From an uncultured Streptococcus sp. (GTDB taxonomy: Bacteria; Bacillota; Bacilli; Lactobacillales; Aerococcaceae), in assembly GCA_963552295.1 (NCBI GenBank), contig CAUVJW010000001.1:1-52200 (forward strand): a stretch of 52,200 nt of DNA. Direction: 5' to 3'. Numbering within the stretch: the stretch's first letter is position 1; each line of letters opens with the position of its first letter. A program made the translations under genes and the position numbers. Below are positions 73-40,936 of this stretch, piece after piece. The notes beneath the pieces were generated by a model. It saw only the letters and a program-made list of their open reading frames with translations. It searched no databases and was not told where the DNA came from.

Positions 73-233
73 CGTTCCCGCGACTGTTCCCGTTCCGAGG
101 AGGAGAGCATTTTGCCCGTTGCCTTGCGGTACGCCAAATGTACTAAAATCACACAGCGCATTTATTATTCCATATAGTTTCGTGCATTAATAAGAATGAG
201 AGCACTACTGTGTTAGAATTTCTCTTTGAAGTT

Positions 234-422
234 GACGATGAGAAGAATCGAGCGGATTTTATAATAGCAGTAATGGGGGATGGCATTCAAAGTGAATTAC
301 GTACGCTTGAAAATTTATTTTCTAGAGTACGTTTGAATCTTGAAAGAGCTTGAGACTATGGCTCAAGCCGGTGCCCCATTACAGCTATTATAAAAAAATC
401 CGCAAGGATTCGAATCATCGTC
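234..422 (+). repeat. Structured intergenic element, copy A (core; degenerate palindrome extends ~105-611)
   Basis: GACGATGA(234-241)/TCATCGTC(415-422) closes a long rod; GTGAATTA 292-299, TTTGAA 332-337, GAGAC-tat-GGCTC 352-364; about 90% identical to copy E over ~160 nt by manual alignment. Confidence 0.9.
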
Positions 423-547
423 TTAGGCTAACGCTCAAGAAGCACCATAAGAAATCCTTTGCTCAGTCGATGCACTACTTATTTTATAAAAAACTCACGA
501 AAAAGCGCTGAAATATGGTATTATAGTGAAATAAGGAGGAATGCACT

Positions 548-1123
548 GTGCGAATTATTTCAGGAGAATTTGGCGGAAGACGCTTAAAGGCAGTACCGGG
601 CCAAAATACTCGTCCGACGACTGACAAGATAAAAGAATCGCTCTTCAATATTCTTGGCGGTTATTTTGACGGAGGAGTCATGCTCGACATGTACAGCGGA
701 AGCGGAGCCGTTGCCATCGAGGCCGTCTCTCGTGGGATGGAACGTGCGTTTCTATTCGAGAACAATCGCCTTGCACAAAAGACGATTGAGCAAAATATTG
801 AGATTACAAAATCACCCGAGCAATTTCATTTAAAACGACAAAACGTGAAACAAGGACTCAAAACCATTGCGAGTGATCCAGCGTTTGAACCGTTCGAGTT
901 GGTGTTTATGGATCCGCCATATCGCCTACAAGAAATTGTAAAGGACATTGAGCAGTTGCAAGAGTTGAATCTAGTTTCTCCAGATTGCGTGATTGTCTGC
1001 GAGGTGGATAAGGAAGTGCAACTTCCAGAGCGGATTTTAGACTTTGAGCAATATAAGCGTGTGGAGTACGGCATTACAGCCCTAGTGTTCTTTGACCGTG
1101 CGACTAGCGAAGAGGAGGCTTAA
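548..1123 (+). CDS. rsmD: 16S rRNA m2G966 methyltransferase RsmD
   Basis: MRIISGEFGGRRL...RPTTDKIKESLFN, SAM motif DMYSGSGA, DPPY; GTG start with AAGGAGG RBS. Confidence 0.95.
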   Translation: MRIISGEFGGRRLKAVPGQNTRPTTDKIKESLFNILGGYFDGGVMLDMYSGSGAVAIEAVSRGMERAFLFENNRLAQKTIEQNIEITKSPEQFHLKRQNVKQGLKTIASDPAFEPFELVFMDPPYRLQEIVKDIEQLQELNLVSPDCVIVCEVDKEVQLPERILDFEQYKRVEYGITALVFFDRATSEEEA

Positions 1124-6925: not shown

Positions 6926-7144
6926 ATGAGTACAATTTCATTACGTTTAAATAAAGAAGAAGAGCGCCTTTTTAAAAATTATGCAGACTTTACCGGAGAA
7001 GGGTTAACGACCCTATTAAAGAAAGCATTAACTGAAAAAATTGAAGAAGAATATGATTTACAAGCTGTAAAAGAGTACGAAAGTGCTAAAGCAAATGGAG
7101 AAGTTATATTAGTTGACCATGAGGAATTCTGGGGAGACTTATAA
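6926..7144 (+). CDS. Type II antitoxin (RHH, RelB/DUF6290-like)
   Basis: 72 aa, TISLRLNKEE ribbon-helix-helix start, acidic C-terminus, TAATG overlap with toxin. Confidence 0.75.
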   Translation: MSTISLRLNKEEERLFKNYADFTGEGLTTLLKKALTEKIEEEYDLQAVKEYESAKANGEVILVDHEEFWGDL

Positions 7145-7419
7145 TGAGGTACACACTTTTTTATGATGAACGTCTCAAAAAGAAAATTAAAAAATTAGAT
7201 AATGGAACAAAAGTAATCTTAAAAAAATGGCTTGAAAAAAATTTGATAGACTGTGAAGATCCAAGAAGTAAGGGGAAACCTCTGAGTGGAACTTTATCAA
7301 AATATTGGAGATATAGAGTTGGAAATTATAGATTAATTGTAGAAATCGAAGATGACCAATTAAAAATTATAGCCTTTGAATTTGCGCATAGAAGCAGTGT
7401 TTACAAATTTATTAAATAG
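7144..7419 (+). CDS. RelE/ParE-family type II toxin
   Basis: 91 aa basic protein with GKPLSG..WRYRVGNYRLI..AHRSSVY RelE signature. Confidence 0.85.
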   Translation: MRYTLFYDERLKKKIKKLDNGTKVILKKWLEKNLIDCEDPRSKGKPLSGTLSKYWRYRVGNYRLIVEIEDDQLKIIAFEFAHRSSVYKFIK

Positions 7420-7759: not shown

Positions 7760-7880
7760 ATTTCGGACCCTTTACATTATTCGGGGAATATTTTTGGCAC
7801 CTTTTCCTACCCCGGCCACCCTTTCTTTTCCCCCTCCGCCTTCGAATTGATTGGGCTTCTTTTTTTATCTTTAATAATTT

Positions 7881-8131
7881 ACGCCTTACGGATAGCGCGT
7901 TAGAGTAGAACACAAACGAAGAACTCACTGGATTTCATCGTAATCATAATCGTGTTTCAGCAAGCAATGTGAATTACTGAGGGTTAGGGGTTTATCTCTT
8001 ACCCTCAGTTTGAAGCTTGCTAGACTTGAGACTTCGGCTCAAGTCGGTGCAATGATTATGATAACGATGAAAAAATCCAGAGGAGTTCGAAGGGTGTGTT
8101 CTATTCTTTTCATTCATTACCCGTAAGGCGT
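7881..8131 (+). repeat. Structured intergenic element, copy B
   Basis: ACGCCTTACGG/CCGTAAGGCGT and AGAGTAGAACACA/TGTGTTCTATTCT arms; AGCAA-t-GTGAATTA(7969)-CTGAGGG..CCCTCAG-TTTGAA-gc-TTGCT; GAGAC-ttc-GGCTC. Confidence 0.88.
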
Positions 8132-8147
8132 TCTTATTTTTGAGCAT

Positions 8148-8178
8148 AAAAAAAGAGCCCGAGATCAATTCTCAGGCT
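8148..8178 (-). terminator. rpsT terminator
   Basis: Minus strand AGCCTGAGA-attga-TCTCGGGCT-CTTTTTTT. Confidence 0.8.
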
Positions 8179-12288: not shown

Positions 12289-12541
12289 TAGAAGACTGGG
12301 CACCTGGGTGACAGTATAGTGAACAATGTTGATTACTCCAAATCCTTACGGATATCTTCATAATAGCTATAACGTTGCACCGGTTCGAGCCTAGGTCTCT
12401 CACCTTTAAAGCCTCAAAGGGAGCGTACGGAATAAAATTCCTACGCTCCCTTTTTCGCATTTAATGCCATCCCACGTTATGGCTATTATAGAATCCGTAA
12501 GATTTTTCGTAATCAACTTTCTAATAAGGCCCAGTCTTCTA
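12289..12541 (-). repeat. Structured intergenic element, copy C (reverse orientation)
   Basis: TAGAAGACTGGGC/GCCCAGTCTTCTA ends; minus strand TTAAA-t-GCGAAAAA-GGGAGCGTA..TACGCTCCC-TTTGAG-gc-TTTAA, GAGAC-cta-GGCTC, CGGTG. Confidence 0.88.
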
Positions 12542-21637: not shown

Positions 21638-21867
21638 GTGCTTACTAAAAAATGAACTTCGTTCAAAACTTCGAACACTGAAGGATTTGTTTATAATAGC
21701 TGTAATGGGACAACGGTTCGAGCCTGTCGTCTCTCACCTCAAAAGCCTCAAAGGAGCCGTACGGAATGACTTCCTACGGCTCCTAATTCGCATTTTGTGT
21801 TATTCCCCATTACTGCTACTATAAAATCCTTCGTGTTCTCCGTTTTGAACATTTTTTTGAGTGATAC
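21638..21867 (-). repeat. Structured intergenic element, copy D (reverse orientation)
   Basis: GTTCAAAAC/GTTTTGAAC arms; minus strand CAAAA-t-GCGAATTA-GGAGCCGTA..TACGGCTCC-TTTGAG-gc-TTTTG, GAGAC-gaca-GGCTC. Confidence 0.88.
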
Positions 21868-28285: not shown

Positions 28286-28320
28286 AAAGCGAGAGACGCA
28301 CCAACGTCCCTCGCTTTTTT
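28286..28320 (+). terminator. murF terminator
   Basis: AAAGCGAGAGACG..CGTCCCTCGCTTTTT. Confidence 0.75.
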
Positions 28321-28392
28321 CGTCCCCTCATGGAGAACTACCCATTATAAAGTGTCCCCATTTCTCAACCGCACCACGAGAAGCAAACACTC

Positions 28393-28668
28393 CCGCCTCC
28401 TCCCGCTTTTTACAGTTTGGAATGCGCTGTGATTACGGGCGGAAAATCTAGCGGATTCAATAGTATCAGTAATGGGGGATAGCATTCAAAGTGAATTACG
28501 TACTCTTGAAAATTTTTTCTAGAGTACGTTTGAATCTTGAAAGAGCTTGAGACCGTGGCTCAAGCCGGTGCCCCATTACAGCTATTATTGATAAATCCGC
28601 AAGGATTTGAAGCCCGTAAAGTCTTATTCCTTAAGCATTTTTAAAGAATAAAAAGCAGGAGTCGGCGG
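28393..28668 (+). repeat. Structured intergenic element, copy E (palindrome extends ~28336-28751)
   Basis: TTACGGGC/GCCCGTAA, GCGGATT/AATCCGC arms; GTGAATTA 28491; GAGAC-cgt-GGCTC; close to copy A. Confidence 0.9.
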
Positions 28669-28678
28669 TCTGTATTCT

Positions 28679-28707
28679 TTGCATTCTCGCGGGATGCGTG
28701 CTATACT
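28679..28707 (+). promoter_or_regulatory. Sigma-A promoter of cshA
   Basis: TTGCAT-17 bp-TATACT with extended TG. Confidence 0.7.
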
Positions 28708-28861
28708 ATTCGCTGAGTTGAGAAATGTACACACATTTATAATAGATAGTTTGAAATTTAAACGATTGTAGAAGTCTGGTGCTCTTACGAAAAGCTCCAG
28801 GCTTTTGTTATGAAGGGAAATCCCTCGTGTGCTTCTCACCGAAGTATCCAAGGAGGAAAAT

Positions 28862-34709: not shown

Positions 34710-34766
34710 GACGAGCGCGATATTGTTGCAAGCACATCACCATAATGGTAGAATATTTTGTATATT

Positions 34767-35002
34767 AGAGCGATGAACAAGAGGAGTAAAATGACTTTGT
34801 TTACGAGAGAGGGAAGACTTGGTGAAACTTCCTAGCAGATTCATTTGAAGGTAGCTTGTGAGCTTACTCTACGAAATGCAGTAATAGAGTACGGAGACGA
34901 CACTTCGTTACCAACATCGAGGCGTAATGAATGATTACGCGAATATTAGGTGGTACCACGAAATCAATCGTCCTATGGAGAGTGTCTTCATAGGATTTTT
35001 TT
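34767..35002 (+). promoter_or_regulatory. Valine T-box riboswitch leader
   Basis: Stem I AGAGA/GGTGAAA motifs, GTA (Val) specifier at 34851, T-box AGGTGGTACCACG 34948-34960, terminator 34971-35002; promoter TTGCAA(34726)-17-TAGAAT. Confidence 0.93.
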
Positions 35003-39948: not shown

Positions 39949-40083
39949 TTGCAAATTTGCCTGTGAGATGTTATACTTAGGTTGTGTTTTTGTTATGTAA
40001 AGAAATTGTGTAAGATATTACTCCTTTCGAACCATTAGCAAGAATATCAATAACAAGTGCTATGGCACAAGGAGGAAATGTTC
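39949..40083 (+). promoter_or_regulatory. cspA promoter and long 5' leader
   Basis: TTGCAA(39949)-17-TATACT(39972) with extended TG; ~100 nt UTR typical of csp genes. Confidence 0.6.
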
Positions 40084-40284
40084 ATGGAACAAGGTACAGT
40101 AAAATGGTTTAACTCAGAAAAAGGTTTTGGGTTTATCGAACGTGAAGGTGGAAACGATGTATTCGTACACTTCTCAGCAATCCAATCAGAAGGATTCAAA
40201 ACATTAGAAGAAGGACAAGCAGTTCAATTCGATGTTGAAGAAGGCGCTCGTGGACCACAAGCAGCTAACGTAGTTAAACTATAA
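40084..40284 (+). CDS. cspA: Cold-shock protein
   Basis: [27 protein letters not shown]; terminator 40302-40328; exact paralogue name uncertain. Confidence 0.92.
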
Positions 40285-40490
40285 TTTAACTTAAACTTTG
40301 ATACCACCGGTTTTCCGGTGGTTTTTTTGTGCGCAAAAACAGAAGAGTCGAAGCTTAAAATGTACAAATTTGGCCATGTCCATATATGGCCTTTTTGTCC
40401 TCCCCCTCCCAAGAATTTCTTTTTATTTTTGTCCTTTTTTAGTAAGTTGGTTTCAAAATTATTGGTGATTTTTTGTTAGAAGCTGCCCCA

Positions 40491-40750
40491 GCTGGAATGG
40501 GAGAAACAAGTGCGAATCGATTTTTGAAAAACGAAGAGTCTTCGGATTCTATAGGAATAATAATAGCGGTCATAATCGATGTGAATTACTGACTCTGGAA
40601 ATTCATTTCCTAGAGTCAGTTTGAAGCTCGATAGGAAACGAGACCTGGGCTCGTTCCGGTATAGCTATTGTTGTTCCTATGAAGATATCCGAAGGTGTTT
40701 GTAGTTTTTCAAAACAGCACAAAACATCTAATTGTTTCTTCCATTCCAGC
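40491..40750 (+). repeat. Structured intergenic element, copy F (palindrome extends ~40412-40873)
   Basis: GCTGGAATGGGAGAAACAA/TTGTTTCTTCCATTCCAGC arms; ATCGA-t-GTGAATTA(40581)-CTGACTCT..AGAGTCAG-TTTGAA-gc-TCGAT; GAGAC-ctg-GGCTC. Confidence 0.88.
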
Positions 40751-40936
40751 CGAAGGCTCACCAGTTTTTTACACAAAAAATATCACCATAATATTACAGA
40801 AACCGTTTTTATATTACGAAATAAAAAAGTTTCCTAAAAATCTATAAAATACAAGAATAAAAAGCTAAATTCTGCTATACTAGAATAGAATTCTTACAGC
40901 CAAGTCTGTAGAAGAATTATCTAAGGAGGAAACAGT

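Follow-up and report, generated by a model that had tools for sequence, protein, structure and literature searches.

The window, i.e., the whole stretch of 52,200 nucleotides that was analysed, begins with the 3' end of a gene for a NusG domain II protein (1–32; an orthologous ORF in L002 matches PF07009). Between this gene and the sequences of interest lies a terminator-like hairpin with a T tail (42–72), which was recognized by eye and not listed by the scanner. It is followed by a left arm (102–236), which is a shortened, imperfect reverse complement of 418–615, and by one copy (copy A, 237–417) of a repeat, hereafter the core, in which a long outer stem leads to a three-way junction that bears two inner hairpins. 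The template of the arm (418–615) comprises a variable spacer, a −10-like box (516–524), the RBS (533–539), and codons 1–23 of rsmD. The latter gene, which encodes the 16S rRNA m2G966 methyltransferase (548–1123; TIGR00095 above cut-off), precedes coaD (1125–1658; TIGR01510 above cut-off). All these features are on the plus strand.

The original prediction had described eight collinear blocks that mirror the start of rsmD. All eight pairs were found in place, four of them exact (TGCCTT, GCG, CGCCAAAT, and TTTCGTG) and four with one or two mismatches or a gap. Smith-Waterman alignment of 73–233 with the reverse complement of 423–650 gave a score of 82.5, whereas the scores of 3000 dinucleotide shuffles averaged 40.0 (sd 6.0) and never exceeded 70. 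When 24,628 genome windows were compared on both strands, the cognate window was the top non-self match (74.5 vs 65.0 for the runner-up), and RNA folding of 60–660 yielded a z of −8.3 (20 shuffles only). The extents could be refined to 102–223 (up to about 236) for the arm and 450–615 for the template, with 104 matches. The complement of AAGGAGG (533–539) was absent from the mirror, as had been claimed; this gap is one of eight in the rsmD arm and is common to all 14 distinct rsmD alleles. The centre of the palindrome, which the prediction had left unnamed, is the multi-copy, ~180-bp core at 237–417.

The proposed direction of copying, with host DNA as the template and the arm as the copy, agreed with the comparison of 14 orthologous alleles, in which the right side was 99% identical (counted beyond the first 100 nt) and the arm 79–84%, as against 87.5% at third codon positions. 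The core was present upstream of rsmD at 19 of the 19 closest loci, one of them in a complete genome, and the arm varied among them, which rules out an assembly artefact. No core was found at 11 more distant rsmD loci. Two relatives (L011 and L014) retained the core and were devoid of the anti-rsmD portion of the arm. We also observed that the apex at this site (241–414 of the window compared with L002, L006, L011, L015, and L019) differed wholesale while the flanks were unchanged, apparently a sign of exchange between paralogous cores.

Five other cores were found in the window. The second copy (7913–8094, plus strand) is preceded by an arm at 7838–7912, whose template is 8097–8177. Two copies are on the minus strand, one with a short arm at most (12334–12513) and one without significant arm (21667–21846). 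A close relative of copy A (28436–28614, plus strand) follows an arm (28286–28425) that mirrors the promoter region (28635–28805) of a DEAD-box helicase gene, and the last copy (40527–40706, plus strand) has an arm at 40412–40526 with its template at 40720–40873. The window also contains a DUF6290 gene paired with a ParE-family toxin gene (6926–7419), likely a type II toxin-antitoxin module, as well as a T-box leader (34764–34978) and a cspA thermoregulator (39986–40329), both matching Rfam at gathering score.

The repeat core and its carriers

The ~180-bp core had 73 matches (71 at E ≤ 1e-5) in the 1.43-Mb genome of the oral bacterium to which the window belongs (G000, 83% complete), six of them in the window, and no match in Rfam at gathering score. 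When 30 copies were aligned, two-sided changes were seen at 34 of 40 pairs and 95% of the cells were paired, above all 500 shuffles and slid controls. Like a MITE, the core is therefore a non-coding, multi-copy sequence that folds into a covarying stem-loop. The inner stem, which could be parsed in 58 of the 73 copies, was represented by 40 different arms, and 444 of its 464 pairs were Watson-Crick, with only nine G.T or A.C. The junction bases are conserved. The commonest loop was C(UUCG)G (6/57), and GNRA loops were found in 6/57. Where a gene ends at the core, the mismatches of the outer stem leaned toward G.U on the mRNA strand (42 vs 14, counts that are not independent). Each arm of the outer stem (260–265 in the window and the opposite arm) carries a TATAAT-like hexamer directed into the core; the scanner reported one weak plus-strand site there (238–265), at chance level.

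Named records with the core pattern were mostly Granulicatella adiacens-like bins and Aerococcus, from which we infer that the window belongs to the G. adiacens group and that genus g16 is Aerococcus. Among 140 genomes of the family, 54 had a looser pattern (29 of 43 within the genus), and the strict pattern was found in 0 of 400 further genomes from the class sample. Phage and plasmid collections gave no match; among viral contigs, two loci had a core, at least one of them being syntenic with host DNA. Most core sites are common across the group.

Several variants of the core were noted. Tandem arm-plus-core units occur, and long forms (G000 C11:17854–18296; L121, L072, L079, L092, and L106) have between two and five additional hairpins. 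At a given site, some relatives have the short form and others the long one, a pattern suggestive of conversion between copies. The long form has a 132-nt insert that resembles a repeat in L030, from another family of the order (E 1e-4), and is weakly similar to the Streptococcus sRNA SpF43 (26 bits, gathering 70). Apex-deleted remnants (G000 C4 near 19990 and C83 near 4481) kept the outer stem and the arms; at the C4 remnant, both the final codons of the host gene and the arm differ from their counterparts in allele L103. Locus L051 has the left flank of one core site and the right flank of another, either because the core mediated a rearrangement or because of mis-assembly. Concerning distribution, only 3 of 55 pattern matches on the chromosome of G023, the complete genome used for comparison, were within 540 kb–1.40 Mb, i.e., 44% of the chromosome (p = 2e-10). 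This is the terminus side, dnaA being at position 22. The terminus-side 500 kb of G301 was also nearly free of core. Many cores of G000 follow genes for aminoacyl-tRNA synthetases or other housekeeping proteins, as judged from ORF starts.

In relatives, the core was found to be associated with ISL3 insertion sequences. In G163, which is of the Aerococcus type, it was located between the transposase stop and the right end in nine of nine ISL3 tails; in G203, it was within the left ends of ISL3 copies; and in G155, it formed a 242-bp element with ISL3-type ends (left 11 and right 14 of 19) and 8-bp duplications (4/11 exact, 7/11 within one mismatch). The covariance model matched the cores of these three genomes with E values of 3e-13 to 8e-11. 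Of 34 ISL3 tails that we examined, many were without core and several had no tail sequence. As many tails are without core, ISL3 is a vehicle of the core rather than its definition. In G009, the 3' tail of ISL3 (L167 and sister copies) was filled by a different long hairpin with a branched apex, to which model R1 had no match; this genome also carries core remnants (L183 and L175).

The Granulicatella copies were different. ISL3-type ends were found in 0/48 copies of G000 and 0/55 of G023, and the ISL3 transposase domain (PF01610) was not found in G000 (83% complete) and was represented by one truncated copy in G023, while 8 of 10 congeners sampled had ISL3 matches. A metagenome scan with the ISL3 transposase found nothing. 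The core is thus like ISL3 elements and MITEs in its location inside ISL3 (3' tail in G163, 5' end in G203) and in the 242-bp ISL3-ended element of G155, and unlike them in Granulicatella, where its copies lack ISL3-type ends and show no clear target duplication (see below). We know of no MITE that copies its flank.

Comparison with other repeats brought likenesses and differences. EFAR (named in PMC3733652) is a modular palindromic repeat of Firmicutes with B, J, and T modules. As described in the accessible portions of the sources, BOX, RUP, and SPRITE (PMC3049150) and STAR (PMC3532100; 10.1101/2023.05.16.541063) are, like the core, intergenic and often near gene 3' ends, and, together with EFAR, share with it a modular build, long-lived sites, and variable stems. 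Arms copied from the host flank are not described in those portions for BOX, RUP, SPRITE, or STAR, and no sequence identity between the core and a named family was established. REP/REPIN-RAYT and Ssn/NTS, as presented in PMC11893778, are also many-copy single-strand hairpins, whose conserved unpaired bases suggest recognition by a protein.

Inverted copies of the flank

Mirroring of the flank proved to be a property of the family. When all cores of G000 were oriented alike, the left flank mirrored its own right flank best in 21 of 56 copies (about one expected), and the mirror was above the 95% null in 35 of 60 (three expected); 25 of 60 had no significant arm. In G023, the own right flank ranked first in 20 of 67 copies. 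Right flanks were 48% coding and left flanks 13%; the gene to the right ended, rather than started, at the core in 34 of 52 G000 copies. Across 27 orthologous sites, the left flank was ~80–85% identical and the right flank 93–96% (beyond the first 50 nt). The arm was shorter than its template in 31 of 35 cases, and there were 64 clean gaps in which the arm lacked template bases, as against nine in which it had extra ones.

The side of the arm follows the orientation of the core. At one site, where the core lies between two convergent genes, it has opposite orientations in G000 and G023 and the arm switches side accordingly, the G023 arm being short (score 43). Both orientations were found on both replichores of G023, and fork direction alone therefore does not determine the side of the arm. 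Around a GIY-YIG operon, two sites filled in G000 were empty in G023. In this comparison, which is unrooted as to gain or loss, the arm, the core, and ~20–25 nt of right spacer were all extra DNA, one of the two arms was a copy of the final codons of the host gene, and neither site showed a clear target duplication. The two cores concerned (G000 C3:25636–28042) face opposite directions and bracket the operon with its small GIY-YIG gene. The arms are new DNA, corresponding to the net insertion of a shortened inverted copy to the left of the core.

To sum up, the feature is real and general: in Granulicatella, an uncatalogued hairpin repeat linked to ISL3 bears one-sided, skip-shortened copies of host DNA. 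No description of the core or of flank-copying arms was found in the literature that we searched, most subscription papers and supplements being outside the search.

The arms add 75–190 nt on one side and are ~70–80% matched to their template; the longest perfect run among 157 arms was 23 nt. In the six best-aligned of 21 site groups (score ≥ 55, which leaves the rsmD group, with a score of 47, outside), the fixed differences between arm and template amounted to 63 substitutions, 41 deletions, and 4 insertions, as compared to 164 substitutions and 18 indels among alleles. The blocks between gaps were mostly 8–19 nt in these groups. For the rsmD group, a best-of-alleles reading, which is biased toward matches and lowers the substitution count, gave one substitution and eight deletions. 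Neutral decay simulated through the same pipeline produced ~9–10 substitutions per deletion. The forward skips of the arms are unlike ordinary decay. In three arms, they comprised terminator hairpins of the template.

Short gaps without microhomology made up 25 of 32 in the arms, 6 of 26 among real inter-allele indels, and 215 of 399 in the simulation. This excludes slippage; it gives no proof of blockwise copying, because 37 of 49 gaps in chance alignments were likewise without microhomology.

Once formed, the copies drift and recombine about as fast as neutral DNA. In 55 of 59 alleles, complementarity was above that expected for neutral decay from the consensus, which suggested selection maintaining the pairing. 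This idea was dropped because unpaired arm columns were no more polymorphic than paired ones (0.17 vs 0.20, p = 0.63). A template-matching allele existed for 122 of the 128 columns of the rsmD arm, which is what would result from decay of the alleles from a copy that was nearly exact and already shortened. The arms showed no G.U strand bias (42 vs 44), and a test for G.U strand asymmetry over all copies was also negative. A C/T-rich tract was observed in 16 of 55 left flanks, as compared to 4–6 on the remaining three strand-sides and 6% of windows drawn at random. It was mostly untemplated. Arm end-points obtained by anchored extension were too loose for defining a tail.

Hairpin nuclease and candidate enzymes

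A search for SbcD was positive in 25 of 25 genomes of genus g16 and in 0 of 43 from Granulicatella; SbcC was looked for in three Granulicatella genomes (G000, G023, and G009) and likewise not found. Arms at z > 2 were present in 21/48 copies in G000, 19/55 in G023, and 2/3 in G703/G710, as against 3/66 in SbcD-bearing genomes, a contrast that amounts to two or three lineages since related genomes are not independent. Three SbcD-less genomes nevertheless had few such arms (G732, 3/11; G730, 0/4; G203, 1/10 and mostly IS-borne). Long arms go with the absence of SbcCD; that this absence is the cause is our interpretation.

We also searched for enzymes that could make the arms. An origin through reverse transcription was rejected, as no reverse transcriptase (PF00078) was found in G000 or in the complete G023. 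A Y1 transposase (PF01797, RAYT) was not found in G000, G023, or G301, which sets these genomes apart from REP/REPIN-RAYT systems. PF01797 was present in G013 and G041, where the covariance model reported no core at the two loci scanned. Unlike in Ssn/NTS, a small GIY-YIG gene was bracketed by cores at only 1 of 12 loci, in G000. A Y1 transposase or an Ssn helper was rejected on these grounds, and genes of the DinB family did not discriminate, since they were found in five of five genomes tested.

Origin of the arms

The best reading, which we hold with moderate confidence, is hairpin-primed fold-back copying that is tolerated when SbcCD is absent. The core is a MITE-like hairpin module, which is carried with ISL3 insertion sequences in relatives; in the G. 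adiacens group, it is devoid of the ISL3 ends, which have been lost, and occupies mostly long-held intergenic sites. In a single-stranded region, the core would fold, and a minus-strand 3' end at its left boundary could snap back on the outer stem and be elongated with the DNA on the right of the core as template. Copying may proceed 10–20 nt at a time, with re-priming slightly further on, so that bases are skipped, and the new copy would then be rejoined to the left flank. The outcome would be that observed, a shortened inverted copy inserted to the left of the core. The resulting near-palindromes of 300–500 bp would persist because their hosts are without the hairpin nuclease SbcCD.

Precedents exist for parts of this scheme. 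Template switching between inverted-repeat arms is established, and, in PMC5941160, quasipalindrome correction (Ripley mechanism) resembles the present case in that copying is templated between hairpin arms and stems vary while staying Watson-Crick. As described there, it perfects short arms in place, whereas the arms described here are one-sided, fixed in orientation, and marked by forward skips. In E. coli without SbcCD and RecA, an interrupted palindrome seeds an inverted duplication, again a fold-back that leads to an inverted copy of the flank; the product, according to PMC3315005, is chromosome-scale, exact, and dependent on loss of recA, whereas our arms are short, skip-ridden, and rejoined.

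Other observations fit hairpin-primed fold-back copying less well. Known template switching perfects arms and has no side fixed by an element, whereas these arms are only ~70–80% matched and one-sided. The searches for a polymerase or nuclease were negative, with no reverse transcriptase in G000 or G023, no Y1 transposase in G000, G023, or G301, and no ISL3 in G000 (83% complete). The correlation with SbcCD comes from two or three lineages, arms are few in SbcD-less G203, G730, and G732, and 25 of 60 G000 copies are without significant arm. The microhomology-free gaps are shared with chance alignments, and the UUCG and GNRA loops, as well as the G.U lean of the outer stem, hint at RNA.

A more tentative possibility is that the core directs its own polar copying, with a host or element-recruited enzyme that would cut or stall at the left boundary and a skip-prone polymerase that would write the copy. 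If true, such copying at the end of an insertion sequence could yield a second inverted end and found new MITEs, and it would become visible where SbcCD is lost.

It is rather unlikely that a single perfect inverted duplication of the right flank arose at insertion and that selection against long perfect palindromes, acting on the DNA or on RNase III substrates, then rapidly fixed deletions in the unconstrained arm until no run above ~20 bp was left. The 122 matching columns of the rsmD arm and its best-of-alleles reading (with the bias toward matches mentioned above) are in line with such pruning, as are the deletions common to all alleles and the longest run of 23 nt. But real inter-allele deletions occur in microhomology (mean 2.15), while 25 of 32 arm gaps have none; six to ten successive selected deletions per site would be required before substitutions build up; and SbcCD, the nuclease that would impose a cost at the DNA level, was not found in the Granulicatella genomes tested.

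We consider it decidedly unlikely that the core is a structured RNA with selected arms, such that the 3' end of a read-through mRNA folds onto the coding region and alters stability or termination, with bulges spaced so as to avoid RNase III. This idea draws on the strong covariation of the core, its conserved junction bases and UUCG and GNRA loops, the 34 of 52 copies behind a gene 3' end, and the 55 of 59 alleles above neutral-decay complementarity; in addition, S. aureus spacer-STAR repeats keep an RNA stem of variable sequence, according to 10.1101/2023.05.16.541063. However, decay from a more perfect ancestor passes the complementarity test as well, and the polymorphism of unpaired and paired columns did not differ. 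Furthermore, the arms have no G.U bias, G.U is nearly absent from the inner stem, apex-deleted remnants and empty alleles exist, and promoter-side copies, whose two arms are unlikely to share a transcript, have arms built in the same way.

Finally, the original prediction suggested that the arm could pair with the start of rsmD in a read-through RNA and that loss of the anti-RBS may reflect selection against silencing of rsmD-coaD; we find this highly improbable in view of the generality of the mirror, its geometry, the predicted fold, and the alleles devoid of the distal arm. On its side are the stability of the plus-strand fold (−172 kcal/mol), the anti-RBS gap in all 14 distinct alleles, and the poor match of the RBS at the two sites where it is clearly spanned by an arm (0.16 and 0.20 vs 0.33–0.57 beside); the latter counts in favour of the prediction, but two sites are too few for a test, and other arms retain part of the RBS complement. 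As a terminator-like hairpin (42–72) precedes the arm and an extended −10-like TGgTATTAT (516–524, found by eye and not listed by the scanner) lies inside the template, transcription of rsmD probably begins near 530, which would leave the arm outside the mRNA. In the predicted fold of a read-through RNA, the start codon was paired (P = 1.0), as were most RBS bases, and skipping of the anti-RBS would therefore not rescue translation. The minus-strand duplex was the stronger one (−98.7 vs −88.9 for the plus strand), and the mismatches of the rsmD arms, which on the sense strand were C.A rather than G.T (57 vs 6, from few independent sites), favour pairing on the other strand. The anti-RBS gap is just one of eight, skips being typical of all arms, and L011 and L014 do without the distal arm. 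The same mirror is present at 35 of 60 copies, with a gene ending at the core in 34 of 52. The rsmD mirror looks like one by-product without a specific regulatory task, and the mirror of a gene start is, by itself, no evidence of antisense control.

What emerges for the G. adiacens group is a small repeat that, at dozens of places in each genome, promoters and gene ends among them, adds host sequence to its own flank. This provides a natural data set on the growth of inverted repeats in bacteria, with core orientation and lack of SbcCD as two testable handles. If the skips arise at synthesis, an unusual copying activity is still to be found.
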